IMG/VR virus record: IMGVR_UViG_3300020021_000009
Coordinates: 1 to 62,352 of that record
Strand: one strand, 5' to 3'
DNA length: 62,352 nucleotides
DNA from: a virus
Lineage: Duplodnaviria > Caudoviricetes
In this document: in pieces, positions 18,502 through 62,352 of the stretch
Layout of the letters: each line of letters starts with the position of its first letter
Position numbering within the stretch: the stretch's first letter is position 1
Translations under genes and position numbers: made by a program
The notes under the pieces: model-generated
What the model saw: only the letters and a program-made list of their open reading frames with translations
What the model was told of the DNA's origin: nothing
Database searches by the model: none

Positions 18502-18511
18502 GGTACCTTCC

Positions 18512-19717: not shown

Positions 19718-19730
19718 GACGCGCCTCCGC

Positions 19731-20228
19731 TCACGTGGTGAAGGCGAAGACCCCGGAGGCGGACCAGTTGAGCGAGAATGTTCCGGCGGTGACGGACTGC
19801 GACCCGCCGAAGTAGTTGTAGCAGACGGCCTGCTTGGCCACCGTGCCGCCACTGATCGTGTCGTCGTAGACCAGGCAGCCGAAGATCCCCGCCATGGTCA
19901 CGGACGCGGACCCGGCCAGGTTGGCAGCCGCGTAGGTGACGATCCCGCCCGCGGTCTTGGTCATCGTGTCCGTCGCCAGTGCCCGGCCCCCGGCGACCCA
20001 CTCACTGGCTCCGGTCACCTCGTTGGCGGTAACCCACTGCCCGGTGTTGTAGCCGGTGGCGGTGACCGCCGCGTCACGGTCGGGCGTCCCGGTGTTGCCG
20101 AAGAGCGCGGCCTTGACCGTGTCGGTCAGCAGGTCCGTGTACGAGGTGGGAGCGGTCCCCTGCTTGAGCATGGGGTTGTAGACCCACTCCCGGAAGATCC
20201 GGCTGTCCCCGGTTGCCGACCAGCTCAT
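19731..20228 (-). CDS. virion structural protein
   Basis: DTVKAALF...GGRAL...LVYDDT...GTFSLNWSASGVF. Confidence 0.7.
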   Translation of the reverse strand: MSWSATGDSRIFREWVYNPMLKQGTAPTSYTDLLTDTVKAALFGNTGTPDRDAAVTATGYNTGQWVTANEVTGASEWVAGGRALATDTMTKTAGGIVTYAAANLAGSASVTMAGIFGCLVYDDTISGGTVAKQAVCYNYFGGSQSVTAGTFSLNWSASGVFAFTT

Positions 20229-30883: not shown

Positions 30884-30897
30884 GGCTTAATCAAATC
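30884..30897. promoter_or_regulatory. recurrent operator-like site
   Basis: GGCTTAATCAAATC overlapping the terminase stop codon. Confidence 0.65.
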
Positions 30898-33100
30898 AGC
30901 CCACGACGCGGTCCATGGCCTTGAAGCCCTGGCCCACCCGGATGCCCCCCTTGCCGCCGCGCAGGTGCGCCACACCGAGCCCGATGGCGTCCCAGACCAT
31001 GGCGTCCAGCCGGTCCGGGGACCAGTCCAGTTCCGGGGTCCAGGTGGTCAGCTGGTCCTCCAGCTGCTCGAAGCGACCGGCGAAGTGCCACCGCCCCTGC
31101 TGGGTGAGCGCGGACACCGGTTCCGCCCGCACCCGCTTGCCCCGGGTCGCGGTCACCACCTTGATCCTGATCGGTACGCCCATGTCCTCCGCCGCGGACC
31201 GGATCGTGGACACGGCCATGTCACGGCCGTAGTTCAGTTCCACGGTGATGTCCGCCGCGTCGTGGTCGATCGCGGCCTGGACCGCGCGCCGGCCCCACCC
31301 GTCCGGCTTGAGATGACAGGTGTAGTCCGCGAGCACGAACCCGTGCACCGTCTTGCGTCCGCCCTCCTCAGGCGTCCACAGCGCGCTCTTCCCGGCGACG
31401 ACGATGCCCTGCTCCCCGGCACCGCCCGACGGGTCCACGCCCACCGTGACGCGGGTCAGCGGGGGCAGGTCCGCGGGGTCGATGCGCACGGCACTGATCA
31501 TGTCGCGGGTCCACAGCGCGTTCTCGTCCTCCTCCATGATCAGGCCCAGCAGCTCCTGGTCGCCCTTGCGCGTCCCCTTGTACGCGTCCTCCAGGGCGTC
31601 GCGGATCTCCTGCGGGAGGTGGGGGTTGTCGTACGTCGTGGCCCGGGTCACGACCGTGTTCCGGAACTCGCCGCGTTCCAGGCGCTTGATCAGTCCGCGC
31701 GGCTTCGGCGTGGTGGACCCGATCCAGCGCGGATGCGGACCGGACCGGAGTCCGAACCGCATCTGGTCCCACGCCTCGTCCATGAACCGCCAGGCCGCGA
31801 TCTCCTCCAACCAGGCCAGGCAGTTGGAGACCAGGAGATCGTCAGCGAAGAACTCATGATCATGCTCAACGGTCAGGTCGTAGACCCTTGCCACGCTGTG
31901 CGTAGGCGTGGACCGAAGTACACCGCCGCGAACAGGTGCTGGTGGGGTTGCGGGCAGGGCACTCGAACATGTTGCCGCACACGCGGCACACCCGTTGCTC
32001 CCGTGTTCGTGACGCATGGTCACGACAGGCAGCGGAGCAGAACCGGACCACGGCAGCGGCTGCGCGGCTACGGAACGGCCGGGAGCAGCGTTCACAGGTG
32101 AAGTCCCGCCAGACACGTGCCGCGACGGACGCCCGACCGCCCTTGGCGTGCCAGTCCTCCCCGCGCTCCGCTCCGTGCTCTGCCCAGTGCTCACCGGGTG
32201 GGAGCAGCACAAAGTTGGAGACCTGGTTGTCCCGCTTGTCGTGGTTCTTGTGGTGCACCTGCATGCCGTCCGGGATGTCCCCGACTTCCTTGGTCCACAT
32301 CCATCGGTGCAGCAGCCCCCGGTTGCTGTTCCGGTAGTACGGATCCCGCCCGTTCGCGTTCCACCGGACCCCGTCGTACGTGATCGGCTCACCGTATCGT
32401 CCCATGACAACACTGTATCAGTCGTCTGGACGAACGAGGCTTGTTGCCACCCGCGCTGCTCCGTCCAGACCTCATGGTCCGGAGTCAGCCAGGTGGACCC
32501 CGCATCGTGGTCGAACCGCCACACCGGGCGCACCCCGTTGTCCCAGACCTGGAGAACAAACCTCAGTCCGTTTCTGGTCCACACCCGGTCACCGGGTCGC
32601 ACCTGCTCAATCGGTACCGGACCGCGCTCCGTACGGATCATGGACCCTTCACGCACGCAACGGTTACCGCCCGAGCGCAGCCGCTCCGTGTCGTCCATGC
32701 TGTTGGCTCCGAACAGCTTCGCCTCCGAGCCGTTGGGCCAGCGGACCACGGTGCCTCCCTGGACCGTGACCATGCGCGCGGTCGGGTCGTGGGCCATGAT
32801 CCCGGACGGCCCGGTGACGCAGGAGGTGGCAGCGTCGCCCAGGGTGGGGGCGATGATCCCGACCCAGTGCGGAGCCCGGCCGGGCAGGCACGGCGGTCCG
32901 TTGACGTGGTCCACGATGTACTTCGCGCAGGCGTCCGTCTTGCCCGCCCCGCGCCCCGCGAGCAGCAGCCACCCGTACCAGTCGCCCGGCGGCGGGACCT
33001 GGTGGGGGCGCGGTGTCCAGCGCGGGGACAGCAGGTCGGCCAGGCGTGAGGAGAACACGTCCTTCGCCTTGGCCGCCACCTCGCGCTGATCACGGTTCAT
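30896..33100 (-). CDS. terL: terminase large subunit, intein-containing
   Basis: Walker A AGRGAGKT, Walker B LAWLEE, TTPKP, nuclease VGVDP...DRLDA. Confidence 0.95.
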   Translation of the reverse strand: MNRDQREVAAKAKDVFSSRLADLLSPRWTPRPHQVPPPGDWYGWLLLAGRGAGKTDACAKYIVDHVNGPPCLPGRAPHWVGIIAPTLGDAATSCVTGPSGIMAHDPTARMVTVQGGTVVRWPNGSEAKLFGANSMDDTERLRSGGNRCVREGSMIRTERGPVPIEQVRPGDRVWTRNGLRFVLQVWDNGVRPVWRFDHDAGSTWLTPDHEVWTEQRGWQQASFVQTTDTVLSWDDTVSRSRTTGSGGTRTGGIRTTGTATGGCCTDGCGPRKSGTSRTACRCTTRTTTSGTTRSPTLCCSHPVSTGQSTERSAGRTGTPRAVGRPSRHVSGGTSPVNAAPGRSVAAQPLPWSGSAPLPVVTMRHEHGSNGCAACAATCSSALPATPPAPVRGGVLRSTPTHSVARVYDLTVEHDHEFFADDLLVSNCLAWLEEIAAWRFMDEAWDQMRFGLRSGPHPRWIGSTTPKPRGLIKRLERGEFRNTVVTRATTYDNPHLPQEIRDALEDAYKGTRKGDQELLGLIMEEDENALWTRDMISAVRIDPADLPPLTRVTVGVDPSGGAGEQGIVVAGKSALWTPEEGGRKTVHGFVLADYTCHLKPDGWGRRAVQAAIDHDAADITVELNYGRDMAVSTIRSAAEDMGVPIRIKVVTATRGKRVRAEPVSALTQQGRWHFAGRFEQLEDQLTTWTPELDWSPDRLDAMVWDAIGLGVAHLRGGKGGIRVGQGFKAMDRVVG
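31823..32659 (-). mobile_element. intein (279 aa) in TerL
   Basis: Block A CVREGSMIRT, block B TPDHEVW, blocks F/G VYDLTVEHDHEFFADDLLVSN followed by Cys. Confidence 0.92.
31866..32405 (-). CDS. HNH homing endonuclease with zinc fingers, nested out of frame in the intein
   Basis: LHRWMW...GDIPDGMQVHHKNHDKRDNQVSNF; CERC..FCSAAC; CRVC..CSRRC. Confidence 0.85.
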   Translation of the reverse strand: MGRYGEPITYDGVRWNANGRDPYYRNSNRGLLHRWMWTKEVGDIPDGMQVHHKNHDKRDNQVSNFVLLPPGEHWAEHGAERGEDWHAKGGRASVAARVWRDFTCERCSRPFRSRAAAAVVRFCSAACRDHASRTREQRVCRVCGNMFECPARNPTSTCSRRCTSVHAYAQRGKGLRPDR

Positions 33101-33199
33101 GGGGACAGGATGCCCGACCCCGGACAGCACGACGCCCCGGCAGCGTGGGGACTGCCGGGGCGGGGCCGCGTCATGGCCCCCGCAGCGTAGCGCAGGCGG

Positions 33200-49086: not shown

Positions 49087-49249
49087 GGCACTACTGTGGG
49101 ACCTGCCGGACCCGCTCCTGAGGGGGATGCGGGACCGGCTCACAGGCTGAACCGCGACACCCGGACGGATAGGCCCGGCCCATGCCATGGGACCGGATAC
49201 CGCTCCCGAACGGCCCATCCGGTCAGAGGTCGGCGGACCGAAAACGTGG

Positions 49250-49316
49250 CGTACGGTACCTCAACGGAAGAGGCCCTGGGAACAGGGGGATGCGGGTTCG
49301 AATCCCGTCCGTACAC
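49250..49316 (+). ncRNA. tRNA-like RNA with anticodon loop replaced by a GGAA tetraloop
   Basis: Acceptor CGTACGG/CCGTACA, D arm CCTC-AACGGAA-GAGG, CCCTG-GGAA-CAGGG, T arm GCGGG-TTCGAAT-CCCGT. Confidence 0.65.
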
Positions 49317-49417
49317 GGGACCCCTCCGGCTCATACCCGGTGGCGGGTCCAAGGGCCCCGCCGGGCCCGGTGCGGGTACGACGACGCTTCGGCGGGCCCG
49401 TCGTCGGCCCGCATTCC

Positions 49418-49489
49418 GCGCCCCCAGCTCAGCAACAGATCAACCGCCTCTTAAGCGGTCGGTCGTCGGTCCGAATCCGACGGGGCGCA
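49418..49489 (+). tRNA. tRNA-Lys(CTT), non-canonical or degenerate
   Basis: GCGCCCC/GGGGCGC-A, ACCGC-CTCTTAA-GCGGT, GTCGG-TCCGAAT-CCGAC; C at position 8, no D-loop GG, no encoded CCA. Confidence 0.75.
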
Positions 49490-49581
49490 CTGCGGTACCG
49501 GGTCCTGCGGGGCCTCACTCCCCCGGGGCACGGGCCCGGTACCGTCCCGATGGCAATGACCAAAGACAAGAGGAGACACCC

Positions 49582-50208
49582 GTGGACCCCTTCGCAGGAA
49601 CCGGCGGAAGCCCCAGTGGCGACCCGTTCAGCGCACCCGCCACCATCCCCAGCGAGTACCCGAAGCTGGAGGGCCTCCGGACCCGGCTGCTTCTGATCGC
49701 ACCCACCAAGTACGAGCAGGGCATCCCGTCCGCCTTCAAGGACAGCAACGGCGTGGTCCAGCTCCAGAACCGGATGACCGCGGACGTCTACGTGGTGGAC
49801 GGCGGGCAGGTCACCGGTTTCGACGTCACCGCGTTCACGTCGATGTACATCTCCAACGCCCGGCTGGTGGACCAGTTGATGAAGGGTTTCAAAGAGCACT
49901 TCATGATCCTGGGCCGTCTCGACACCTTCAAGCCCGGCACCAATGCGGGGGCGGGGAACCCGTGGGGCCTCGCGGACCCGACCGAGCAGGACAAGCAGGC
50001 GGCCCGCGCGTACATCGCGGCCGGTCGTCGGCAGCCGGGCGAGGGCCCGGACGGCTTCCCGCAGCAGGCCCCGCAGAGCGCCCCGCAGTTCCAGCAGGCT
50101 CCGCCGCAGGCCGCTCCCGCTCAGAACCCGTGGGACCAGGCCGCCGCACCGGTCACCGCCTCCGGATGGGGCGCGCCGGTCACGTCGAACGGGAACCCGT
50201 TCGGCTGA
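49582..50208 (+). CDS. putative ssDNA-binding protein
   Basis: GAGGAG RBS; beta-rich core with Q/P/A tail ending NPFG; follows the exonuclease. Confidence 0.55.
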   Translation: MDPFAGTGGSPSGDPFSAPATIPSEYPKLEGLRTRLLLIAPTKYEQGIPSAFKDSNGVVQLQNRMTADVYVVDGGQVTGFDVTAFTSMYISNARLVDQLMKGFKEHFMILGRLDTFKPGTNAGAGNPWGLADPTEQDKQAARAYIAAGRRQPGEGPDGFPQQAPQSAPQFQQAPPQAAPAQNPWDQAAAPVTASGWGAPVTSNGNPFG

Positions 50209-50254
50209 CACCCCGCACTCCCCGGCTGCCGGTTCCCCCGGCGGACGGGTGAGC

Positions 50255-50298
50255 GAGGCCCCGTCTTCCTCCCTTCGCCCGGAGGCAGGCGGGGCCTC
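50255..50298 (+). terminator. hairpin, putative terminator
   Basis: GAGGCCCCGTCT...AGGCGGGGCCTC. Confidence 0.55.
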
Positions 50299-50330
50299 TG
50301 CCATTCCCGGGTACTGTCCGGGGCCGTGAC

Positions 50331-50344
50331 GATTTAATCAAATC
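50331..50344. promoter_or_regulatory. recurrent operator-like site
   Basis: GATTTAATCAAATC upstream of the wHTH gene. Confidence 0.8.
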
Positions 50345-50376
50345 CTGATACCGTCAGGTGACGAGAGGAGTGGACC

Positions 50377-50673
50377 ATGGAGACCGAACAGGGTCCGGCC
50401 CCCCGCGGCCGGCCGCCGGGCCACAGCGGGGCACGTGAGCGCGAGGCCCGGATACTGGAACTGCTGGGGGAGCACCCGGAGGGGATGACCCGCAACGCCA
50501 TCGCGGACGCCACCGGGGAGGCCCCTCAGAAGGTGTGGCTCGCCCTGGACCGGCTGCGGGACCAGGGCCTGGTCCGCACCTGCGCACCGGTCCAGGTGAC
50601 GGAGGACGTGGACGGGCAGCCGCGCAGCCGCGGACGCCAGCTCACCTGGTCGCTGGGTGAGGAGTGCCAGTGA
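50377..50673 (+). CDS. winged-helix DNA-binding protein with AT-hook-like motif
   Basis: PRGRPP; ILELL...GMTRNAIA...VWLALDRLRDQGLV. Confidence 0.8.
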   Translation: METEQGPAPRGRPPGHSGAREREARILELLGEHPEGMTRNAIADATGEAPQKVWLALDRLRDQGLVRTCAPVQVTEDVDGQPRSRGRQLTWSLGEECQ

Positions 50674-50915
50674 GCCGGAAGCCGAACGCCGACCGGGCCC
50701 TGCGTCATCTGCGGCAGCAGATGTACGACGCCCAGGACCGTGCCCGCAGGAACGATCCACCGCTGCCGGGACCTGTCGTCAACCCCCTGGTGGCGATGGA
50801 CGCCTTCATTGCCGCGTACACGGCGCCGCTGCCCCGGCGGGTCCGGCTCCTGCCCACCTGGGCCGGGGTCCGGGTGGACCACGCGGACGACCGCGTACGG
50901 GAGGCGGGACGGTGA
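50670..50915 (+). CDS. small hypothetical protein
   Basis: GTGA coupling. Confidence 0.5.
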   Translation: MSRKPNADRALRHLRQQMYDAQDRARRNDPPLPGPVVNPLVAMDAFIAAYTAPLPRRVRLLPTWAGVRVDHADDRVREAGR

Positions 50916-51205
50916 AGCGTCTTCCGACCCGGGCGGAGGTGTCCGCCTTCCTGGCCGCCAACGCGTCTCACTACGACGACGGTCGCTGGGGTGTTCCGTC
51001 GGTCTCCGGTGGGTTCACGCCCGTGTTCGAGCCGGCCGCTCTCAAGCTGGCGGAGGTGCACCTGATCGTGGGCACCCCGCTGCTGGACACGGTCACGTCC
51101 GACTTCGCGCTGATCCTGGCCCGCCGCCTGGTCGCCCTGGAACAGGCCGTGGCCGAGTGCCGTGCTCCGGTGTCGGCTCCGGAGCCGGGGGTGGTGCCGG
51201 TATGA
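50912..51205 (+). CDS. small hypothetical protein
   Basis: GTGA coupling; VKRLPTRAEV... Confidence 0.5.
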   Translation: MKRLPTRAEVSAFLAANASHYDDGRWGVPSVSGGFTPVFEPAALKLAEVHLIVGTPLLDTVTSDFALILARRLVALEQAVAECRAPVSAPEPGVVPV

Positions 51206-51873
51206 GGACACGGCCCACGATCTCCGTCTGCATCCCCACCCTCCCCGGCCGCGAGACCGAGCTCCGCCGCGCGGTGGCCTCCGTGCTCCGCCAGAAGGAC
51301 TCCGGCTGGGGCCCGCTGGAGATCCTGGTGGAGCGGGACCCGGACCGCAACGGGGCGGCGGCCACCCGCAACAAGCTGCTCGCCCGGTCCCGGGGGGACG
51401 TCATCGCCTGGCTGGACGACGACGACTGGATGGGTGACCGCCACCTGTCCGTCTGCGGCCGGATCCTGCACGACCGCCCGGACGTGGACCTGGTGTACCC
51501 GTCTCCGATCATGGAGCCGCGCCAGGACGACGGCACGTTCCGCCGGGCACCGGTCTGCCCGGCCGCCGTCACCCATCAGGGTGTGTTCCCCACCGAGCCG
51601 TGGGGCCTGCGCTGGTGTGACGAGTTCGCGGCCCACATCCGCCGGCTCGGCTCGTTCATCCCGATGACGCACCTGGTCCGCCGGGACGTGCTGGTGGACG
51701 CGGGCGGGTTCCCGGAGGGGCGCACACTCCCCGACGGCCGGTACCAGGGGGAGGATGAGCGGATGCTGCTCGCCCTGCTGGACCGGGGCGCCGTGTTCGA
51801 ACACGTGGACCGGGCGACGTGGCACTGGTACGTCAACCCGAAGAGCACAGCGGGGAAGGGGCGGGCACAATGA
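51202..51873 (+). CDS. glycosyltransferase family 2
   Basis: ISVCIPT..R, AVASV..Q, GAAATRN, IAWLDDDD, GGF, ED. Confidence 0.88.
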   Translation: MRTRPTISVCIPTLPGRETELRRAVASVLRQKDSGWGPLEILVERDPDRNGAAATRNKLLARSRGDVIAWLDDDDWMGDRHLSVCGRILHDRPDVDLVYPSPIMEPRQDDGTFRRAPVCPAAVTHQGVFPTEPWGLRWCDEFAAHIRRLGSFIPMTHLVRRDVLVDAGGFPEGRTLPDGRYQGEDERMLLALLDRGAVFEHVDRATWHWYVNPKSTAGKGRAQ

Positions 51874-52439
51874 CGGACATGATGCACTGGGGGCCGGACA
51901 CGGACATCGTTCCGTTCCGTGCGGATGACTCGCTGTCCTGGAGGCTGGAGGCGCTGCGGCGGGACGTCGCCCAGACGGCGGACCTGCTGGAGCGGTGGGA
52001 GGCGGGCGAGCTGACCGAGGACACCCCGCCGGTCAGCCGGTCCGGGTACGGGGTGGCTGGACAGAGGACTGAGGAGCCGGACCCCGTGGCGAATCTGTCC
52101 GCCCTCGCGCGGGAGGTCTACCGGTCGGCTGCGTCCGATCCGGACAGCGTTCCCGTCACCCCGGACACGGCCGGCGGACACGGAGTCTTCATCGGTCCAG
52201 GACCGGACACCGGAGCATTGACCTCCTGGCGCAATGAGTGGACGGACGACTGGTACGACGCCCTCCTGTACGGCTACACGGAGGCGGAGGCGCGGACGGC
52301 CGGACTCCGTCCGTCCTGGGAGTGGCGGACGGACACGGTCAACGTCCGGACAGGGGATCCCGGACAGCCGTGGCGGACAACGGCGGACAGTCGGACGGAC
52401 ACGGACAGCGGACACGATGTCCGGGGCGGACACATGTAG
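51870..52439 (+). CDS. hypothetical protein in GGACA-rich DNA
   Basis: ATGA coupling; low-complexity 3' half. Confidence 0.5.
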   Translation: MTDMMHWGPDTDIVPFRADDSLSWRLEALRRDVAQTADLLERWEAGELTEDTPPVSRSGYGVAGQRTEEPDPVANLSALAREVYRSAASDPDSVPVTPDTAGGHGVFIGPGPDTGALTSWRNEWTDDWYDALLYGYTEAEARTAGLRPSWEWRTDTVNVRTGDPGQPWRTTADSRTDTDSGHDVRGGHM

Positions 52440-52450
52440 GGTCGCGGACA

Positions 52451-52486
52451 GAAGGGCGGACACCGGGTCCACGGTGTCCGCCCTTC
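52451..52486 (+). terminator. perfect 15-bp inverted repeat
   Basis: GAAGGGCGGACACCG-N6-CGGTGTCCGCCCTTC. Confidence 0.65.
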
Positions 52487-52617
52487 GCCATGTCCGGATG
52501 TCCGTGTCCGTCCACCTGTCCGTCCACCTGTCCGTCCGCCTGTCCGTCCGCCTGTCCGGATGTCCGTGTCCGTCCGACTGTCCGCTTGACGCTGTCCGCC
52601 GGACATGGGACAGTGGC

Positions 52618-52645
52618 GATCTAATCAAATCGGTTTAATCAAATC
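52618..52645. promoter_or_regulatory. tandem double operator-like site before the spd/tra genes
   Basis: GATCTAATCAAATC directly followed by GGTTTAATCAAATC. Confidence 0.8.
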
Positions 52646-52666
52646 CCCGGACAAGAGGCGGACACG

Positions 52667-53512
52667 ATGGACGCGGACAGCGGACAGAGCGGACAGGACA
52701 CCCGGACACCGGACATGCCCGTCTGGGTGTCCTGGTTCACGGACGGCGGACGCCCGGTCGTGGCCGTACTGGTCATGATCATGTGCGCACCCGGGGAGCA
52801 CCACCTGGCTGCCATGGCCGGCTGGGAGGACTGGCTGGCCTGGGGCATGCCCGGCTGCCTGGTCATCTACACGGGCATCGCCGCGGTCGTGGCCACCAAG
52901 CGGGCCAAGGGCACGCCCGGCAAGCGCACGGCCGTGGTGGGGGCGATCCTGTCCCTGCTGCTGGCCATGAGCGCGCAACCGATCAGCCACCTGTTCGTGA
53001 CCGGGATCTGGCACGGCGACCCCTGGCCCCTGGTCGTGGTCGTCTCCTGTATCCCGCCCATGGTCCTCGGACACCTGCTCCACCTGGCCGCCGGGGGATC
53101 TGTCCGGTCCGTCCGGCGGACAGTGGCGGACACCGGACAGGCTGACGTCCCGGACAGTGCGGACGCACCGCTGCGGACAGTGGCGGACACGGACGGACAC
53201 CGGGCCGTGCGGACGGACATCGGACGGACGGACACCTGGATCATCGTGCCGGACACGGACACGGACACGGACACGGACACGGATACGGTGTCCGGACACT
53301 TTGCCGAACCGGTCGTCGTGTCCGTCCCGGTCCGCCGTTCCGTTGTCCGGCAGATGGCGTCCGGCTCCATCCCGTCCGTCGTCAAGGACATCCTCACGGA
53401 CAGCCCGGACGCCACGAACGCCGATGTCCGGGACATGGTCCTGAACCGGCTCGGACCGGACACCAAGACAGACAGCATTAGCAAGGCGATCCGCCGCGTG
53501 CGCGCGGCCTAA
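52667..53512 (+). CDS. Spd-like (DUF2637-type) multi-TM membrane protein with C-terminal helical domain
   Basis: About four TM segments ending IPPMVLGHLLHL, low-complexity linker, basic C-terminus SISKAIRRVR; first gene of the tra operon. Confidence 0.7.
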   Translation: MDADSGQSGQDTRTPDMPVWVSWFTDGGRPVVAVLVMIMCAPGEHHLAAMAGWEDWLAWGMPGCLVIYTGIAAVVATKRAKGTPGKRTAVVGAILSLLLAMSAQPISHLFVTGIWHGDPWPLVVVVSCIPPMVLGHLLHLAAGGSVRSVRRTVADTGQADVPDSADAPLRTVADTDGHRAVRTDIGRTDTWIIVPDTDTDTDTDTDTVSGHFAEPVVVSVPVRRSVVRQMASGSIPSVVKDILTDSPDATNADVRDMVLNRLGPDTKTDSISKAIRRVRAA

Positions 53513-53526
53513 GGAGGGACACGGAC

Positions 53527-54003
53527 ATGAGCACTACCCAGGTTGGAACGTCCGCGAGCAACGCCCAACGGGAGCCCGCACGACCGTCCCACAAGCCGAC
53601 CGTCGGACGGACGGGGACGGGATCGGACAGGATCGACGCCCTGGTCCGGGCGCTGGACGATATTCAGATCGAGGACCAGCACGACCTCCACGCGATCCTG
53701 GAGGCGTTCCGCAAGCTCGGTCACCGCCTCGCGATGGAGTCCATGCTGACCGGGTCCGAACTGGAGGCCGGTCTCAAGCAGGCGGCCCGCGGCGGCAGCG
53801 TCTTCGGGACCGTCGGGTTCGGCACCCACCGGAAGATCAGGCGCACGCTCAAGGCGCTGCGGACCATGGCCGACGGATTCGCGGGGGCGAGCGCCAGCGC
53901 GGTCGTCGCGTGGCGCGCGTTCGAGAAGGATTTCGCCGAAGACCTGGCACCCACCCGCACCAGGCCCGCTCCCCGCAAGGGGTTCCGGATCAACCCGAAC
54001 TGA
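53527..54003 (+). CDS. TraA-like plasmid transfer protein
   Basis: Small helical protein directly before traB; AWRAFEKDFAEDL...GFRI end resembles Streptomyces plasmid TraA. Confidence 0.6.
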   Translation: MSTTQVGTSASNAQREPARPSHKPTVGRTGTGSDRIDALVRALDDIQIEDQHDLHAILEAFRKLGHRLAMESMLTGSELEAGLKQAARGGSVFGTVGFGTHRKIRRTLKALRTMADGFAGASASAVVAWRAFEKDFAEDLAPTRTRPAPRKGFRINPN

Positions 54004-54043
54004 CCCCTGACCAGCGAAGACGACCCGAAAGGAGGCGGACACC

Positions 54044-56074
54044 GTGAACGCCAAGACACCGAAGACACCGAAGGTCCCGACCGTGGACCTGGGCGACCGG
54101 GCCAAGCAGGTGCTCGCCCCCTGGGGGCTGGCCGTGGCCGCGATGCCCGTCTCCGTGGTGCTGCATGCGGCCTGGGGCGGGGACGCGGTCATGCAGGAGC
54201 TGATGGCGGGCGGCTCCGTCCTGCTCACCGGGGCCGTGCACACCACGTGGTCCCGGCGCCACGAGCACACCAGGCTGCTGGCCACGGTGTACACAGGCCT
54301 GGTCACGGGCTGGATCTCGGTCGGGACGGCGGTCAACCCGCTGTCCTCCGGGATGGTCAAGGCGTGGGAGTTCGGCGGGGCGCTGGCGTCCATCGTCTGG
54401 AACATCGCCTCTGCTGCGCACCGTGCGCCCCACGAGACCGACACGGCCTCCGGGAAGGCCGGCGACCTGGACCTGTCCACGGTGGGCGGGGCCCTGACCG
54501 GTGCCGTGGCCGACAAGGTACGGCGCAAGACCGGCCGACTGGAGGCAGACGTCCAGCTCAAGCCGGGTGAGACGGCGGAGGGGGTGGAGGGCGAGCGTGG
54601 CCGGATCGCGTCCCTGGCCAAGGTGGGTGCCGACCAGGTGACCGTCACCCCCAACCGCAAGCGGGCCGACCGGGTCATGCTCTCGTTCTCCGCCAGCCCC
54701 GATCAGCGCAAGGCCGTGCGCGGGTTCGTCCAGGGCGAGCTGGGCCGCTCCGTCGCGGACGCCCCGCTGGTCATCGGGCAGCGGGCGGACGGCTCCGACC
54801 TGGCCATATGGATGGTCGGCAACGACGACATGGACGACCCCCGGGCACTGGGCCACACACTCTGCACGGGCATGACCGGGTCCGGCAAGACCGAGACGAT
54901 CAACACACTCATCCTGCGGATCCGGGAGACCTGCGACATGGTCCCCGTGGTGGCCGACCCGGCGAAGTTCGAGCAGTCGTTCGGCACCATCGCGGACGCC
55001 TTGGAGATCGCGGCCAAGGGGCGGCAGCAGACGAACGCGCTGGTCCGGAACCTGCCCGCCGCCATCACCTACCGCTCGGAACTGCTCGGCACGCTGGAGC
55101 GGTCCGACGGGCTGTCCGGCGGCTACTCGCAATGGGTCCCCGAGTGCTGGACGCTGCACCGCATCCCGGCCGTGTTCGTCGATATCGAAGAGGCGACCGA
55201 CGTCCTGTCCACGGTCGATGACGAGTTCGACGACGCCATTCGCAAGGCACGGTCGGTGGGAATCCACCTGTGTGCCTCGCTCCAGACGGCGATCCACTCG
55301 AACATGGAGCGCAAGACCCGCGGACAGTTCTCCAACACGCTGTGCCACGGCTGCACCGAGGACCACGACGCGAAGTTCTCCCTGAACGCCAACACCCTGG
55401 CGGCCGGCGCGGACCCGACCAAGTGGCAGAACTCCTACCCCGGCAGCCTGTACGGGGAGTTGTTGGGGGTGCCGCCGGAGGAGTGGTCCATGGACGCCCG
55501 CGCCTACGGCGTGGAGCGCTCCGAGAAGCGGGCCGCGGTGGACACCTCGCGTCCGTTCTGGGCCCGCCTGGACCCGGGGACGGCCATGCGCCTGGGGGCG
55601 GGGATCGCGATGCCGGACGCCAAGGTGGTAGCCGGGCTGACTGCGGTCACCCGGGACCCGGCCCCGTCCCAGGAGGAGGTGTCCGTGTACGTGGACGACG
55701 ACCGGGAACCGGCGTTCGACCCGACCAGGGTTTCGGCAGAAGGAGGGGACATCGACGTGACCACACCCATCCCGGCCCCGGACCGCGACGGCCCGCGGGT
55801 CGTCCTGGCACCCGCGCGCACGGAACCGGTCGACTTCGAGGGGGCGTACCGGAAGATCAAACTGCGGCTGGCGAAGCTGGAGCAGGGCGGCCAGGACCAC
55901 ATCACGTACCAGGACATCGGGGACATTCAGGCGGAGTCCGGTGTCAGCCGGGGGTGGATGTACAAGGCGATGCGGCGACTGGAGGAGAACGGCCGCCTGG
56001 TCGCGGTGTCGGGGGCGGGAAAACCCCCGTACCGGATCGTCGCGAGGGAGCGGAACGGCACCGCTGTCGGTTAG
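54044..56074 (+). CDS. traB: TraB FtsK/SpoIIIE-family conjugative DNA translocase
   Basis: N-terminal TMs, GMTGSGKT, VVADPAK, FVDIEEA, ARSVGI..SLQ, C-terminal wHTH SRGWMYKAMRRL. Confidence 0.9.
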   Translation: MNAKTPKTPKVPTVDLGDRAKQVLAPWGLAVAAMPVSVVLHAAWGGDAVMQELMAGGSVLLTGAVHTTWSRRHEHTRLLATVYTGLVTGWISVGTAVNPLSSGMVKAWEFGGALASIVWNIASAAHRAPHETDTASGKAGDLDLSTVGGALTGAVADKVRRKTGRLEADVQLKPGETAEGVEGERGRIASLAKVGADQVTVTPNRKRADRVMLSFSASPDQRKAVRGFVQGELGRSVADAPLVIGQRADGSDLAIWMVGNDDMDDPRALGHTLCTGMTGSGKTETINTLILRIRETCDMVPVVADPAKFEQSFGTIADALEIAAKGRQQTNALVRNLPAAITYRSELLGTLERSDGLSGGYSQWVPECWTLHRIPAVFVDIEEATDVLSTVDDEFDDAIRKARSVGIHLCASLQTAIHSNMERKTRGQFSNTLCHGCTEDHDAKFSLNANTLAAGADPTKWQNSYPGSLYGELLGVPPEEWSMDARAYGVERSEKRAAVDTSRPFWARLDPGTAMRLGAGIAMPDAKVVAGLTAVTRDPAPSQEEVSVYVDDDREPAFDPTRVSAEGGDIDVTTPIPAPDRDGPRVVLAPARTEPVDFEGAYRKIKLRLAKLEQGGQDHITYQDIGDIQAESGVSRGWMYKAMRRLEENGRLVAVSGAGKPPYRIVARERNGTAVG

Positions 56075-56083
56075 CAGCGCCTG

Positions 56084-56246
56084 TGTCACGGGGCGTCACA
56101 GCCCCGTGTCACGGACGGTACCAACCGGTACAGATCAGCTGTAACAGGGACGCTGTCACGGGGCAGTGTCACGGCATGTCACGGGGCTCCGACCTTAGGG
56201 AGTCCTCGCGTGACGTCCCGCCCTGGACACGGGAACGATGTCACGG
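56084..56246 (+). repeat. putative clt locus: six direct TGTCACGG 8-mers
   Basis: Copies at 56084, 56107, 56154, 56167, 56177 and 56239 plus variants, directly after the traB stop. Confidence 0.8.
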
Positions 56247-56256
56247 AGGACTGATC

Positions 56257-56451
56257 ATGAGGAACACGATCGCGGCGGTGCACGCGGTGGCCATCCTTGT
56301 CTGGGTGCTGGTCGTCGGTACGGGACGGCTCACGGTGCCCGGCTTCCTGCTCTGGCTCGCGCTCTGCGCGGCCGGGGACCAGGCCCTGGTCTGGGCGCTC
56401 TGGCTCGGCTCCGGCCGCAAGGGTCCGTCCCCGAACCGGCGCTGGCGCTGA
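56257..56451 (+). CDS. small membrane protein (Spd-like)
   Basis: GGAGG RBS; hydrophobic; downstream of traB. Confidence 0.6.
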   Translation: MRNTIAAVHAVAILVWVLVVGTGRLTVPGFLLWLALCAAGDQALVWALWLGSGRKGPSPNRRWR

Positions 56452-56558
56452 TGGCTGGCCGCCGCCCCTCGTTCCTGGGGCTGTGGTCCGGCCGGCTGAT
56501 CGGCTGGATCGGTTTCGGGGACGCGGCACGCATCCTGTTCGAGCACCTGACGCACTGA
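56451..56558 (+). CDS. small hydrophobic peptide
   Basis: TGATG coupling. Confidence 0.45.
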   Translation: MAGRRPSFLGLWSGRLIGWIGFGDAARILFEHLTH

Positions 56559-56571
56559 GAGAGGACGCACC

Positions 56572-57009
56572 ATGGAGCGTGACCCGACCTACGGGGAGGA
56601 GATCGCACGGCGCTGGCCGGACGTCGCCCCGTACCTGCCGCAGCGCAGCGGGGCGGGCGGGGACCAGGTGCACATCCACCTGCACCAGGCACCCGCCGTC
56701 CCGGATCAGAAGGTGTCGGCGGAGCAGCGGGGTTGGGACCTGCTGCACGCGATGGCGCCGTACCTGCTGATCGCGGGCCTGCTCGCGGTCATCGTCTGCG
56801 GGTCGCTGGCGATCCTGGCCTACGCGTTCACCATGGTCATGGCCATGCTGCTGGCGCTGGTCGCGAGTGCGGAGGCCCTGGCAGGGGCGGCGGTGGCGCT
56901 GGTCGTCGCCGTGGCCCTGGCCGCCGCGGGCATCGGCCACCTGGTCCACGGCGGGGGCACCACCGTGACCGGCAACCGGAACACGGTCAACGAGAGAAAG
57001 AGGAACTGA
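56572..57009 (+). CDS. membrane protein (Spd-like)
   Basis: VHIHLH motif, long hydrophobic stretch, TVTGNRNTV tail. Confidence 0.65.
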   Translation: MERDPTYGEEIARRWPDVAPYLPQRSGAGGDQVHIHLHQAPAVPDQKVSAEQRGWDLLHAMAPYLLIAGLLAVIVCGSLAILAYAFTMVMAMLLALVASAEALAGAAVALVVAVALAAAGIGHLVHGGGTTVTGNRNTVNERKRN

Positions 57010-57010
57010 C

Positions 57011-57244
57011 ATGACATGGGTGACGAGCGGGGACAGTGCGGCGGTCAACCTGGACCGGGTGGCCGTCCTCGGAGTGCGGAACACGGGCGAGGACGAGTAC
57101 CAGATCGGTGTCTTCGCCAGTGAGGACGACGTGGCCGGCGACGCACTGCTGTACCTGACCGGGACGTGGGCCACGCTGGCGGACGCGCAGACGGTACTGA
57201 CCCGTCTCGTCAACGCGGTGGACCCGTCCGCGTACGCCTCATGA
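57011..57244 (+). CDS. small hypothetical protein
   Basis: GAGG RBS; VNLDRV. Confidence 0.6.
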   Translation: MTWVTSGDSAAVNLDRVAVLGVRNTGEDEYQIGVFASEDDVAGDALLYLTGTWATLADAQTVLTRLVNAVDPSAYAS

Positions 57245-57921
57245 TCGACGTGCTGGTCCCGTCCAGGGGCCGTCCGGAGATGCTGGTCCGGTCCCTGCAC
57301 TCCCTGTTCACCACGGCAGCGGACCCGCGCAGCGTCCGTTGCCACGTGGCCGTGGACAACGACGACCGGGCCACGGAGGACGTGGTCCGGTACCTGGCAG
57401 GGAGCCTGGAACCGGGGGCGGTCACCCTGACCGTCTCCGAGCGGCACGGCTACGCAGGACTGCACCACTACTACAACACCCTGGCCATGCGCGGCAGCGG
57501 TGACTGGCTGCTGCTGTGGAACGACGACGCGTTCATGCAGACCACCACCTGGGACATGGCCCTGGACGTCCACATGCCTGCGGGCGTCCTGGTGGCCGAC
57601 CTCCAGTCGGCCCACTCCCCCGGTCTGTGCTGCTTCCCGGCCGTGCGCCGGGAGGCGGTGGAGGCGCTGGGGTTCTTCGCCACGGACAACCCGCACTGCG
57701 ACACGCTGTGGCAGGACATCGGCCGGGCCACGGGCACGATCGCGGCAGTCCCGGTCCACGTGCTCCACGACCGTCCCGACCTGACCGGCCGGGCACCCGA
57801 CGCCACCTGGACCGAGGGCCGCGCCGGTACCCACGGCGCGGACTACGGGGGCTCCCCCCACCAGGCCCAGGTACTGCACGCCATAGCGACCATCAGGAAG
57901 GCATTCCCGTGCGCGCTCTGA
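57241..57921 (+). CDS. glycosyltransferase (GT-A fold)
   Basis: IDVLVPSRGRP, VDNDD, WNDD, CFP, CD. Confidence 0.8.
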   Translation: MIDVLVPSRGRPEMLVRSLHSLFTTAADPRSVRCHVAVDNDDRATEDVVRYLAGSLEPGAVTLTVSERHGYAGLHHYYNTLAMRGSGDWLLLWNDDAFMQTTTWDMALDVHMPAGVLVADLQSAHSPGLCCFPAVRREAVEALGFFATDNPHCDTLWQDIGRATGTIAAVPVHVLHDRPDLTGRAPDATWTEGRAGTHGADYGGSPHQAQVLHAIATIRKAFPCAL

Positions 57922-58826
57922 TCTTCGGCGGTTCCGGATTCGTCGGCCGCCATCTGGCCGCGACCCTGACCGGGGGCGAGCACCGGGTCAGGGTGTTCGA
58001 CAGGGCCGACCACCCGGGGGACGACGTCCGGGACCCGGACGCGGTCACCGACGTGGTGCGCCGGTTCGAGCCGGACCAGGTCTACCACCTGGCCGCGATC
58101 TCCTGGCCCGGCGAGTCCCTGTCCGACCCCCGGCACACGATGGACGTCAACGTGACCGGGACGCTCAACGTCCTGGAGGCGGTCCGGGTCACCGGCTCCC
58201 GCGCGCGCGTGCTGATCGCGGGCACCTCCGAGGAGTACGGCTACGGGGAGCGGCCCGGATCGAACGAGATCACGGAGGGGACGGCCTGCGCACCGACCAC
58301 GGTCTACGGGGTGTCCAAGCTGGCGGCCACCACCCTGGGCCAGGTCTACGCCCAGCGGTACGGCATGCACGTCGTGAGTACCCGGGCCTGGAACCACACC
58401 GGTCCCGGCCGGCAGGCGGTCAACGCAGAGTCCGCGTTCGCCTGCCGCATCGTCGCGGTGGAGCGGGGCGAGGCGGACAGTGTTCCGCACGGGGACCTGT
58501 CCGCCGTCCGGAACTGGACCGACGCCCGGGACGTGGTCCGCGCGTACCGGCGGCTGCTGGACCCGAAGGGGGAGGCGACCCCGGGGATCTACAACGTGTG
58601 CTCGGAGGAGAACCTGCCCCTGTCCGAAATCATGGACCTGCTGTTGGAGCAGTCCTCCGTCGGTCCTGCCGACCTCCGGCTGGACCCCGCCCTGGTTTTC
58701 CCGTCCCCGTGGGGTATGTGGCCGCAGCCGTCTGCGGAGAAACTGCGGGAGATCACCGGATGGACCCCGAAGATCCCGCTGGACCAGACCCTGTCCGAAC
58801 TGCTCACCTACTGGAGGAACCGATGA
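57909..58826 (+). CDS. GDP-mannose 4,6-dehydratase / RMD-like extended SDR
   Basis: GGSGFVG, YHLAA, TSEEYG, YGVSK, NHTGP, DARDVVRAY. Confidence 0.88.
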   Translation: MRALIFGGSGFVGRHLAATLTGGEHRVRVFDRADHPGDDVRDPDAVTDVVRRFEPDQVYHLAAISWPGESLSDPRHTMDVNVTGTLNVLEAVRVTGSRARVLIAGTSEEYGYGERPGSNEITEGTACAPTTVYGVSKLAATTLGQVYAQRYGMHVVSTRAWNHTGPGRQAVNAESAFACRIVAVERGEADSVPHGDLSAVRNWTDARDVVRAYRRLLDPKGEATPGIYNVCSEENLPLSEIMDLLLEQSSVGPADLRLDPALVFPSPWGMWPQPSAEKLREITGWTPKIPLDQTLSELLTYWRNR

Positions 58827-60046
58827 TCTGCCGGAGCTGCGGGAGTGGGTCCCTGACCCGGGTCCTGGACCTGGGACTGCACCGCCTTCCCGACTTCCCG
58901 ACACCGCAGGACTACGCGGCCGACACCGGGCAGACCGACGTCCACCCGTTGTCCCTGGTGATCTGCGCCGGCTGCACCCTGGTCCAGTTGGAGCAGACGA
59001 CACCGCGGGGGCTGCTCTACCACGACCGCTACGGGTTCCGGTCGGGGACCAACGAGGCAGTCCGCGCGGACCTGACCGACGTCGTGAACTACGCCCGGAC
59101 CGTGGTCCCGGACGCGAGAACCTGGCTGGACATCGCGTGCAACGACGGCACGCTGCTGTCCAACGTGCCGCCCACAGTGTGGCGGGTCGGGGTGGACCCC
59201 CTGTCCCAGCTCGCCCCGCAGGCGCGCCGGTTCGCGGACCGGGTCGTGTCCGACTACTTCTCCCCGCGGCTGCGGCACGTCGGCAACACGGCGTTCGACG
59301 TGGTCACGTCGGTGTCCATGTTCTACGACCTGGACGACCCGAACGCGTTCGCGGCCGGGGTGGCGGAGGTGCTCGCCCCCGGCGGGGCATGGGTGGTCCA
59401 GCAGAACTACGCGCTGGACATGGTCCGGTCACTGGCGGTGGACAACATCTGCCACGAGCACGTGACGTACTGGTCCGTGACCAGCATGGTGCCGCTGCTG
59501 GCCGCCCACGGGCTGGAGGTCAACGACGTCACATACAGCACGGTCAACGGGGGCTGCTTCCGGACCCTGGTCTCCCACCGGGGGGAGCGGCCGGTCAGCG
59601 CGTCCGTGGCCGACGCGCTGGAGCGGGAGGCGGCGGCAGGGCTGTGGAACCCGGTGACGTGGGACACCTTCGGGGAGCGGGTCCGGGCGGAGCTCGGCAA
59701 GCTCCAGCGGTTCCTGTCCGCGGTCACCGACCGCGGCAAGACCGTGGACCTGTACGGGGCGAGCACCCGGGGCGGGACCTTCCTCCAGATGATCGGAGCA
59801 GGCCCGTCGGTCCTGCGACAGGCGGTGGAGCGGAGCCCGGACAAGGTGGGGAAGGTGATGGCGGCGACCGGCCTGCCGATCGTCGGCGAGGACGTGATGC
59901 GGGCGGACCCGCCGGACTACCTGTTGGTGTCGCCGTGGTTCTTCCGGGACGTGTTCCTGGTCCGCGAGCGCGCGTACCTGGAGGCGGGCGGGACCATGGT
60001 GTTCCCACTGCCGCAGTTCGACATGGTCACAGGGTCCCCGTCATGA
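58823..60046 (+). CDS. NDP-sugar C-methyltransferase
   Basis: CRSCG..LDLG..C..CTLVQL zinc domain, DIACNDG, HEH, YGASTRG, PDYLLV.PW. Confidence 0.88.
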   Translation: MICRSCGSGSLTRVLDLGLHRLPDFPTPQDYAADTGQTDVHPLSLVICAGCTLVQLEQTTPRGLLYHDRYGFRSGTNEAVRADLTDVVNYARTVVPDARTWLDIACNDGTLLSNVPPTVWRVGVDPLSQLAPQARRFADRVVSDYFSPRLRHVGNTAFDVVTSVSMFYDLDDPNAFAAGVAEVLAPGGAWVVQQNYALDMVRSLAVDNICHEHVTYWSVTSMVPLLAAHGLEVNDVTYSTVNGGCFRTLVSHRGERPVSASVADALEREAAAGLWNPVTWDTFGERVRAELGKLQRFLSAVTDRGKTVDLYGASTRGGTFLQMIGAGPSVLRQAVERSPDKVGKVMAATGLPIVGEDVMRADPPDYLLVSPWFFRDVFLVRERAYLEAGGTMVFPLPQFDMVTGSPS

Positions 60047-60630
60047 GCCTGCGTCCCGGCGTCACGGTCGTCGTCCCGGTTCACCCGCCCCGGTTCCACA
60101 CCACGCTGGACCGGGCACTGCGCAGCGTGTGGGAGCAGCAGGCACCGCCGGCCGCGGTCGTCGTGGAGGTCGACCACTCGCATGCCGGGGCGGCCGTGAC
60201 CCGGAACCGGGGCCTGGCAGCAGTGCAGACGGAGTGGGTGGCGTTCCTGGACAGCGACGACCAGCTGAGACCGGCACACCTGCGGCGGTTGACCGAGCAC
60301 CAGCGGGACACGGGGGCTGACCTGGTCTACCCATGGTTCGACGTCGTGAACGGGTGGGACCCGTTCCCGGACCGGTTCGGGGTGCCGTTCGACCCGGCGG
60401 TGCTGCGGGAGCGGAACACGGTCCCGGTCACGGTGCTGGCGCGCACGTCCCTGATCAGGGACGTGGCCGGGGGCTTCCGCCCGAAGGGCCCGCCGGACAA
60501 CCCCTGCGACGACTGGGGCTGCTGGGATGAAATGGTCACAGCGGGGGCACAGTTCAGCCACCTGCCGGAGCGGACCTGGCTCTGGTGGTGGGCCACGGGC
60601 AACACGTCCGGACGCGGTGACGTCTGGTAG
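60043..60630 (+). CDS. glycosyltransferase family 2
   Basis: VTVVVP, ALRSV..Q, GAAVTRNRGL, VAFLDSDD, GGF, DDW. Confidence 0.88.
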   Translation: MSLRPGVTVVVPVHPPRFHTTLDRALRSVWEQQAPPAAVVVEVDHSHAGAAVTRNRGLAAVQTEWVAFLDSDDQLRPAHLRRLTEHQRDTGADLVYPWFDVVNGWDPFPDRFGVPFDPAVLRERNTVPVTVLARTSLIRDVAGGFRPKGPPDNPCDDWGCWDEMVTAGAQFSHLPERTWLWWWATGNTSGRGDVW

Positions 60631-61652: not shown

Positions 61653-61744
61653 TGAGCCGGCACCGCCGCACCGTCTTCGGACAGCCCGTGTTCTGGGCCC
61701 TGTTCGCGGCCGTGATGGCCGTCCTCATCCTGATCAACCTCTGA
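61652..61744 (+). CDS. 30-aa membrane peptide
   Basis: TGATG coupling; VFWALFAAVMAVLILINL. Confidence 0.5.
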   Translation: MSRHRRTVFGQPVFWALFAAVMAVLILINL

Positions 61745-61759
61745 CCCGGAAGGATCATA

Positions 61760-62352
61760 GTGACCACCATCGACCTGACCGCCCTCACCCTGAAGCCCGG
61801 CAACCACCACGACCGCGCCGAAGGCGTCTGCATGCTGGAGGCCGTCGCCTGGTTCGCCGGCGAGGACCACTCCGACCACCCGGCCTGCACGTCCCCCACG
61901 CTGGCCGGCTACGGGCGCCGCCTGAACGACGTGCTGCCGGACGACTCGCGGCAGTTGCTGGTGCCGATGGTGCCGCGCATGGTCGGCACGGCCGGTGACG
62001 GCCTGGACGAGGCGCGCGGGTATCTGGCGCTGGACTGGCTGGTGCGCACGTACACCCCGGCGTGGCTGGATCTGGCTGGGCTGACGGAGCGTGCGGCCGA
62101 GCTGCGGGCGCTCCGCAGGATCGTGGACCTGTCGGCCGCGCAGGCTGCCGGCCCGGTGGCGCTGGCGTCGCGGAAGGACGCGGCCGCCGCTCGGGACGCC
62201 GCTTGGGACGCCGCTGGGGACGCCGCTCGGGCCGCCGCTGGGGACGCCGCTCGGGCCGCCGCTGGGGACGCCGCTTGGGCCGCCGCTGGGGCCGCCGCTG
62301 GGGACGCCGCTGGGGACGCCGCTTGGGACGCCGCTCGGGCCGAGCGGCGTCC
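61760..62352 (+). CDS. 5' part of (D/A)AA(W/R/G) tetrapeptide-repeat protein
   Basis: GAAGGA RBS; GVCMLEAVAWFAGEDHSDHPAC N-terminal domain; open to the window end. Confidence 0.8.
   Translation, partial: MTTIDLTALTLKPGNHHDRAEGVCMLEAVAWFAGEDHSDHPACTSPTLAGYGRRLNDVLPDDSRQLLVPMVPRMVGTAGDGLDEARGYLALDWLVRTYTPAWLDLAGLTERAAELRALRRIVDLSAAQAAGPVALASRKDAAAARDAAWDAAGDAARAAAGDAARAAAGDAAWAAAGAAAGDAAGDAAWDAARAERR
62183..62340 (+). repeat. 12-bp tandem repeat G(A/C)CGCCGCT(T/G/C)GG
   Basis: About 13 consecutive units. Confidence 0.95.

Follow-up and report, generated by a model that had tools for sequence, protein, structure and literature searches.

A putative TraA/TraB-type transfer module with a clt-like repeat array in a tailed phage of Streptomyces-like hosts

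The soil viral contig IMGVR_UViG_3300020021_000009 of IMG/VR is a single record of 62,352 bp with a GC content of approximately 70% and a CheckV completeness estimate of 76%. We analyzed this contig over its full length, referred to here as the window, with emphasis on a plus-strand gene cluster between 52618 and 57244 whose central gene encodes an FtsK-like ATPase. Genes were called from GC content at the third codon position (GC3), and 68 candidate window proteins were scanned against Pfam and PHROGs; the gene content is that of a tailed actinophage, and the host is a high-GC, Streptomyces-like bacterium. In the cluster, a pair of AT-rich elements is followed by genes for a multi-transmembrane (TM) protein, a small helical protein, and the ATPase, then by an array of 8-bp direct repeats and genes for small membrane proteins. 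An earlier annotation made from the letters of the DNA, hereafter the sequence-only reading, took this arrangement for a Streptomyces-type conjugation module and the whole element for a probable conjugative phage-plasmid.

The ATPase gene (54044-56074, +) encodes 676 amino acids with an N-terminal membrane anchor, an FtsK-like ATPase core, and a predicted winged helix-turn-helix (wHTH) domain near the C terminus, at residues ~615-667; the TM segments, the GMTGSGKT motif, and the wHTH-like tail listed in the sequence-only reading are all present. Walker A (GMTGSGKT) lies at residues 276-283, Walker B at 380-383, and an ARSVGIHL...Q segment at 402-414, and four N-terminal hydrophobic maxima are centered on residues 23, 48, 79, and 107. 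The NCBIfam profile plasmid_TraB (NF041214) matched residues 16-669 over profile positions 2-635 of 639 (E = 2.9e-98, 330 bits), whereas Pfam FtsK_SpoIIIE matched the P-loop only, at 19.9 bits and below its cutoff. A tblastn search with the protein returned 51 PLSDB records, 45 from Streptomyces and 24 with at least 80% coverage, including traB genes annotated on plasmids of 10-30 kb, which showed 26-31% identity across ~96% of the length. An alignment-based scan for relatives yielded 31 IMG/VR loci (contigs of 29-98 kb) and contigs of four Streptomyces isolates, and a profile of 34 phage-side TraBs aligned with a profile of 12 plasmid TraBs in hhalign with a probability of 100% (E = 2e-82, 631 columns). 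Residues G276, G281, K282, T283, D380, E382, and E383 were invariant in the 34 phage sequences, while Walker A, Walker B, the ARSxGxxL...Q segment, and the wHTH segment SRxW...GRL were conserved across these and seven plasmid TraBs. In a tree of 49 rows, which was a quick search with one long outgroup branch, the 34 phage-side TraBs grouped in a single clade with an SH-aLRT support of 99, and 14 plasmid TraBs made up its sister group. These data point to a true TraB relative that groups with Streptomyces plasmid TraB and not with chromosomal FtsK, as the sequence-only reading had supposed. Among GenBank phages, tblastn of the window TraB gave no match at 1e-5, although near relatives may lie outside the set searched; the TraB of plasmid pWTY27 used as query matched 47 records there, all through the ATPase core and none from an actinophage.

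The closest point of comparison is pWTY27 itself, a plasmid of Streptomyces sp. Y27 whose transfer protein Tra is called TraA in the original paper and TraB in the PGAP annotation. According to that paper, transfer needs both tra and a cis-acting transfer locus (clt), to which the protein binds; clt comprises the last 16 bp of tra and the next 159 bp and contains TGACACC in four copies together with CCCGCCC repeats and inverted repeats, and its deletion reduced transfer approximately 1000-fold (Wang et al. 2012, PMC3583192). The 672-aa Tra aligned with the window TraB end to end in BLASTP (27% identity, E = 2e-36), including the TM region, Walker A and B, and the wHTH domain. In the plasmid record, TGACACC repeats and one GTCACGG directly follow the gene, and a TraA gene (PGAP) directly precedes it. 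The phage TraA-TraB module is homologous end to end to the TraA/TraB of small Streptomyces plasmids such as pWTY27 and pJV1. The two also differ: pWTY27, a theta plasmid of 14 kb, carries genes for a GntR regulator as well as for DUF2637/SpdB2 and Rep, none of which is detectable in the 62-kb window, the orientation of its repeat core relative to the gene is opposite to that in the window, and the phage TraBs form a separate clade. A gene annotated as 'phage major capsid protein' lies ~800 bp 3' of clt in pWTY27 (plasmid positions 10642-12102; 6783-8243 of the extracted locus, L052).

In the window, six direct TGTCACGG repeats (56084-56246, +) start 10 bp after the traB stop codon, and a hairpin at ~56083-56112 (DNA fold z = -3.6) opens the array. 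The whole window contains eight copies of TGTCACGG against 5.13 expected, six of them within these 163 bp and all on the plus strand. The 8-bp array noticed in the sequence-only reading is therefore present directly 3' of traB, and it shares both a GTGACA/TGTCAC core and its position with the proven clt of pWTY27, in keeping with the earlier suggestion of a Streptomyces-type clt. The recognition sequence of the pSVH1 TraB (TRS) is a different word, GACCCGGA. The repeat counts among relatives refer to 27 non-redundant loci, from which L028, L029, L037, and L050 (gapped matches with an uncertain gene end) and L045, L021, and L040 (duplicates or near-duplicates) had been removed. For 10 of these 27, the 300 bp that follow traB showed an enrichment (P < 0.001) of the word TGTC[AG][CG], other relatives had different repeated words in this region, and the downstream word shifted with the clade of the TraB wHTH domain. 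We consider the array clt-like on the strength of its sequence and position.

Directly 5' of traB lies a gene (53527-54003, +) for a helical protein of 158 aa lacking a TM segment. Its match to NCBIfam plasmid_TraA (NF041213) was under the cutoff of 80 bits (E = 5.6e-5, 23 bits) and BLASTP gave no match to pWTY27 TraA, but hhalign of 22 phage homologues against three plasmid TraAs returned a probability of 97.5% (E = 8e-12, 103 columns). In the ESM Atlas, the protein scored 0.92 to PF28214 TraA-like clusters, and the top structural match was to the same family (TM-score 0.57). Of 28 relatives, 26 likewise have an open reading frame (ORF) at this point. Profile, structure-cluster, and positional data agree in indicating that the small helical protein of the sequence-only reading is TraA-like.

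Hydropathy analysis located the multi-TM protein and the small membrane proteins where that reading had placed them. The first gene of the module (52667-53512, +) encodes 281 aa with approximately four TM segments in residues 31-142 and a low-complexity, DT-rich C-terminal half; residues 20-172 share 59% identity with a protein of the relative L014. Searches for homology to SpdB2 (DUF2637, PF10935) gave no support: besides the Pfam scan, BLASTP for SpdB2 likeness (E = 0.8), a six-frame PF10935 search of the window (none at E ≤ 0.1), and hhalign against DUF2637 (probability 0.07%, from shallow alignments) were negative, and an ESM Atlas score of 0.86 to DUF2637 clusters is sub-threshold and serves as a lead only. 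We describe the protein as SpdB2-like in position and topology only, not demonstrably SpdB2/DUF2637. Downstream of the array, a 64-aa protein with two hydrophobic segments (56257-56451, +; no family match in Pfam, PHROGs, or NCBIfam) and a 145-aa membrane protein hydrophobic over residues 56-128 (56572-57009, +; no match in Pfam or PHROGs) are Spd-like by position only, the latter having a match of 27% identity at the corresponding position of L014. A 77-aa soluble protein (57011-57244, +), called by GC3 and likewise lacking a Pfam or PHROGs match, is translationally coupled to its neighbors, and its membership in the module is uncertain. A sugar-modification cluster (57241-60630) follows directly 3' and encodes a family 2 glycosyltransferase (GT2), an NAD-dependent epimerase/dehydratase, a C-methyltransferase, and a second GT2; similar genes also flank TraB in the Streptomyces element pS1D4-14.2 and in the relative L013.

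The layout of the module resembles that of pSVH1, in which TraB combines a membrane anchor, an FtsK-like motor, and a wHTH domain that reads 8-bp repeats, is accompanied by small membrane proteins, and is implicated in intramycelial spreading across cross-walls (Thoma 2015, PMC4447253). The likeness is one of published description (Reuther 2006; Vogelmann 2011; Thoma 2015), and the spdB3-spd79-spdB2 operon of pSVH1 has no demonstrable homologues in the window.

The module is preceded by a tandem pair of AT-rich elements (52618-52646, +), with TAATCAAAT at 52622 and 52636, 22-45 bp 5' of the first gene. With at most one mismatch, TAATCAAAT has 13 matches in the window against 0.27 expected, a number reached in none of 100 shuffles, and it sits in a palindrome-like context, tGATT-TAAT(T/C)AAAT-CAgt. 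Nearly all of the matches are close to an operon start on its 5' side, and the element lies 25-45 bp 5' of at least seven operon starts (1052, 4700, 42293, 46724, 50377, 52667, and 60905), which bears out the earlier observation that the module shares a motif with other phage promoter regions. No match to sigma-70 or terminator consensus sequences was found in a scan of 51-58 kb. We regard the element as a promoter or operator candidate, and its position suggests that the module is tied transcriptionally to this element of the phage's own.

The start of the module is overlapped by a dense array of CGGACA/TGTCCG hexamers (51874-53630) with 65 exact copies, which run on the plus strand, switch to the minus strand at 52475-52598, and return to the plus strand. 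The array takes in an ORF at 51870-52439, the stretch between the genes, and also the four-TM gene's 3' half, where it encodes the DT-rich half of the protein; it forms two dense blocks around the TM-coding part of that gene, with no extended consensus beyond the hexamer. In the entire window, CGGACA occurs 187 times against 69.7 ± 9.3 expected (0 of 100 shuffles), and the 65 copies fall within 51.8-53.7 kb. CGGACA and TGTCCG arms also build a giant palindrome of ~250 bp (52370-52620; DNA fold -92.2 kcal/mol, z = -9.3, 0 of 200 shuffles as good), which includes a perfect 25-bp inverted repeat (52383-52407/52561-52585) and a perfect 15-bp hairpin (52451-52486). A dense hexamer array was found within ~2.6 kb 5' of traB in all 27 relatives, and the hexamer contains GGACA in 22 of them. 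Because this GGACA core is nearly constant while the TraB wHTH domain varies, the array is probably read by a protein other than TraB. The SpdA/sps system was considered as an identity for the array and rejected; sps is a 12-bp palindrome in 2-3 copies.

A full virion operon shares the contig with the module, as the sequence-only reading had noted. The minus strand carries genes for portal (27512-29308), major capsid (22217-24004), and tape measure (12554-15667) proteins, together with a head-tail adaptor and a major tail protein in the same operon (all by PHROGs), as well as TerL (30896-33130, a 744-aa ORF), lysis genes, PolA, and a D5-type primase. The TerL ORF spans homologues of two pS1D4-14.2 genes, for an HNH endonuclease (31872-32405) and a terminase (30899-31870), both at ~62% identity, and probably represents either two genes or one gene with an N-terminal extension. 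From 42.3 kb, the plus strand contains methylase, helicase, and exonuclease genes, a gene for a small wHTH protein, the TraA/TraB module, and the sugar-modification cluster. The 12-bp tandem repeat GACGCCGCTGGG occurs at both contig ends (1-207 and 61760-62352, ~10 and 13 copies), where the two halves of one DAAG/AAAG/DAAR-repeat protein are encoded in frame, and an identical TraB is found on a second contig of 62,108 bp. From the shared end repeat, the in-frame gene halves, and the second contig, we read the window as a near-complete genome broken within one repeat gene. The 36 bp preceding the start of the repeat-protein gene (61730-61765) recur at 204-239, ahead of the next gene.

Several other features of the window were recorded. 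Tandem repeats of 60-66 bp (2.3-4.6 copies) at 18678-19178 occupy a gap in the virion module (18501-19731) and overlap a weak plus-strand ORF. A tRNA-Lys (CTT) gene (49418-49490, +) lies within a long mechanical ORF (49096-50208) whose real gene start is probably 49582. Two WhiB-like regulators are encoded (5621-6088 and 2857-3456), and pS1D4-14.2 also has one. An additional glycosyltransferase was noted at 6602-7633; the corresponding 343-aa glycosyltransferase-like protein (6602-7675, -) is matched by a 728-aa 'LAGLIDADG homing endonuclease' of pS1D4-14.2 (78898-81084) in two pieces, residues 1-255 and 627-728, at ~61% identity. Thus, pS1D4-14.2 carries an intein-like or homing-endonuclease insertion that is absent from the window.

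The module, part of the early/replication arm of the genome, is native to the phage and vertically inherited. The 98.8-kb linear 'plasmid' pS1D4-14.2 (NZ_CP041606.1) of the completely sequenced Streptomyces sp. S1D4-14 belongs to the same phage lineage: 34 of 66 window proteins were matched, including the syntenic virion module (capsid 63% and portal 57% identity by search), and its TraB is 41% identical, inside the 24-67% range of shared genes. It also has a TraA-like gene 5' of traB and a TGTCGG...CGTCAG repeat region 3' of it. The 31 IMG/VR contigs are syntenic with the window as well. L013 and L014 preserve the order helicase, exonuclease, wHTH protein, TraB, and glycosyltransferase, and a capsid gene was on the same record as TraB in nine of ten IMG/VR records tested, two of these records having terminal repeats. 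Independent Logan contigs, from runs that probably represent the source sample, span 49500-56575 and 55450-58500 without any difference from the window and at a uniform depth of ~100x, a second sample contains fragments identical to the window, and GC content is uniform along it; a metagenome scan for a 74%-identical relative gave one 3.6-kb contig. This synteny, the separate TraB clade, the uniform depth, the bridging contigs, and the shared AT-rich element are our grounds for native origin, and on coverage, phylogeny, and gene order alike the sequence-only reading of a native module was sustained.

Records of pS1D4-14.2 annotate its proteins as hypothetical only, and the accessible parts of the papers on the S1D4-14 strain set do not describe it as a phage. 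Its gene after traB (6723-7172; 11271-11720 of locus L001) encodes 149 aa, of which residues 66-149 resemble the window TraB wHTH domain (E = 3e-8); by this similarity, the product appears to be a free-standing paralogue of the TraB DNA-reading domain. Contigs of the same lineage were found in S. africanus NRRL B-24243, NRRL S-455, NPDC017936, and NPDC126497. The S. africanus assembly contains three more TraB homologues at 28-30% identity (contigs C596, C382, and C422), presumably on ordinary plasmids or integrative and conjugative elements of actinomycetes (AICEs).

In contrast to the window, the larger pS1D4-14.2 encodes both ParA and ParB, along with a tyrosine recombinase and an XRE regulator. 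Searches of the window for tyrosine or serine recombinases, ParB_N, AAA_31, and CbiA (PF00589, PF00239, PF02195, PF13614, and PF01656) were negative, as were searches for homologues of the pS1D4-14.2 ParA, ParB, Int, and XRE proteins; as a positive control, the CbiA search detected the pS1D4-14.2 ParA at 5.5e-23. Among ten related IMG/VR records, nine of which are at least 90% complete, an integrase was present in two, ParB_N above cutoff in none (four weak matches), and ParA in none, while among the four isolate contigs (54-96 kb) a recombinase was present in three and a ParA-like gene in two. Therefore, some members of the lineage are temperate or episomal and others apparently non-temperate, TraB remaining constant, and TraB is kept where plasmid genes are absent. 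Because the near-complete contig has no integrase, ParA, or ParB, the label 'phage-plasmid' that the sequence-only reading had given to the window genome is not supported. An AICE, an integrated element of 10-25 kb with integrase, Rep, and TraB, was likewise rejected as the identity of the window, which lacks an integrase and, at 62 kb, is a phage genome complete with its virion module.

The precedent invoked in the sequence-only reading was pZL12 (phiZL12, GQ919031), which is reported to transfer conjugally (Zhong et al. 2010, cited in PMC3583192). According to papers that cite the original work, pZL12 combines virion genes with conjugal transfer in which the FtsK/SpoIIIE-like gene pZL12.71c and adjacent genes are involved, and pSLE1 is described as syntenic to it. 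The precedent stands as a concept, that of a plasmid-phage with transfer; kinship in sequence does not, since only two of 66 window proteins, the tape measure protein and a peptidase, matched at E ≤ 0.01 and TraB was not among them. The pZL12 Tra falls on a very long branch far outside the TraB clades, and pZL12, unlike the window, encodes ParA and ParB as well as an integrase and a GntR regulator. Thoma et al. 2015 (PMC4447253) suggested that phage DNA might be spread by the SpdB2 homologues found on the actinophages phiC31 and VWB. These two phages are mentioned there for SpdB2 and not for TraB with clt, whereas the window combines TraA and TraB with a clt-like array and has no demonstrable SpdB2. 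In the main texts of the open-access papers searched, a TraB of the pSVH1/pWTY27 type was not described in a tailed-phage lineage, nor was the present lineage described.

We lean, with modest confidence, toward a TraB/clt-type double-stranded DNA pump that the phage would use to move its own genome independently of virions. TraB would insert in the membrane via its N-terminal helices, dock on the TGTCACGG repeats through its C-terminal wHTH domain, and assemble as an FtsK-like hexamer. Aided by the flanking membrane proteins, the hexamer would drive phage DNA, double-stranded and unprocessed, across the membrane or cross-wall, and the phage genome could in this way enter neighboring hyphal compartments or touching hyphae without virions. 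Because partition and integration genes are lacking, such a pump would more likely serve the spread of a replicating or carried genome than conjugation of a stable plasmid prophage.

A number of results weigh against this pump. The TraB score of 330 bits is under the NF041214 equivalog cutoff of 800 bits, so function need not be conserved. Its hexamer and wHTH folds are deduced from sequence alignment, a PDB profile search having given marginal matches to FtsK (E = 0.03) and PilT and weak ones to wHTH chains (E = 0.09-0.5). The motif-specific enrichment after traB was seen in 10 of the 27 relatives, not in all, and its agreement with the wHTH clade could be explained by shared descent. A motif-free test of repeat richness placed the region after traB in the top 5% in just two of 27, a result that is not significant and arises because stronger arrays lie elsewhere in the relatives' loci. 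The 281-aa protein had no Pfam match to SpdB2/DUF2637 even at E ≤ 10, and no GntR TraR-type kil/kor regulator was seen among the window proteins in the Pfam scan. Finally, the larger GGACA array nearby could be the real target of TraB or could serve another function.

The alternative next in probability, although unlikely, is that the element is a conjugative phage-plasmid after all, an extrachromosomal prophage that would pass between mycelia by TraB-mediated transfer and also form virions. The deposition of pS1D4-14.2 as a separate linear replicon with ParA, ParB, a recombinase, XRE, virion genes, and TraB speaks for it, as does the occurrence of TraB on separate contigs, some with recombinase or ParA-like genes, in the four other isolates. 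The window, however, is near-complete, with one repeat gene split across its ends, and has none of these plasmid-type genes, and the ten related IMG/VR records mostly lack an integrase and have neither ParA nor ParB_N above cutoff.

We give a lower probability still to a segregation pump, by which TraB, in the manner of FtsK/SpoIIIE, would clear or pump phage DNA through vegetative or sporulation septa as they close and thereby let compartments and spores inherit a carried (pseudolysogenic or episomal) genome, with the GGACA mega-array as a loading or orienting sequence. Consistent with this idea, most relatives have no ParA or ParB and yet some were found in isolate cultures, the hexamer array next to the module is huge, conserved, and strand-switched, and the ATPase core is FtsK-like; moreover, motifs of the spd region can serve plasmid stability, as SpdA/sps shows (PMC4170104). 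On the other hand, the closest characterized homologues, of the pWTY27, pJV1, and pSVH1 type, function in transfer, an array resembling clt at the 3' end of traB matches a transfer system, and nothing shows that TraB reads GGACA, whose core is nearly constant while the wHTH domain varies.

A role in host takeover or competition, through kil-type growth arrest, interference with host FtsK, plasmids, or AICEs, or superinfection exclusion, seems very unlikely. Plasmid traB has a kilA function (PMC4447253), and the module has early genes for neighbors and falls under the control element of the phage itself. A full-length anchor, motor, and wHTH domain with a cognate-looking array would nonetheless be needless for mere toxicity. 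PADLOC returned a weak match of the ATPase core to mad8 (43 bits), but it is limited to residues 243-449 and far weaker than the TraB match, and a defense role for TraB was rejected. A chimeric assembly or a recent insertion of AICE or plasmid cargo, conceivable in a metagenome-assembled window, was rejected as having next to no probability in view of the error-free bridging contigs and identical fragments in a second sample, the gene order shared by pS1D4-14.2, L013, and L014, the deep separate clade of phage TraBs, and the module's use of the phage's own AT-rich element at uniform GC content.

Beyond the pump itself, we tentatively entertain a broader possibility, that a lineage of Streptomyces tailed phages of 62-100 kb, mostly without recognizable lysogeny or partition genes, keeps TraA, TraB, and clt as a core function for moving its own genome across cross-walls and between touching hyphae with neither virions nor a receptor. 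The module would then be a bacterial counterpart of the movement protein of plant viruses, and the GGACA mega-array with its palindrome may provide the system with a second element in cis, which would serve in loading, orientation, or segregation. The precedent known so far, pZL12, is one plasmid-phage of unrelated sequence; the set described here is a conserved core of a widespread lineage, found on 31 IMG/VR contigs and five isolate-borne elements, and the TraA/TraB module is present with or without plasmid-type genes. Carriers are available in culture (Streptomyces sp. S1D4-14, S. africanus NRRL B-24243, and NRRL S-455), which makes the question directly testable. If true, phages of a multicellular host would have a second, receptor-independent route of spread, which would change how plaque growth, the containment of phages by Streptomyces development, and receptor-based resistance are read, and would add a further route of horizontal gene flow among antibiotic producers.

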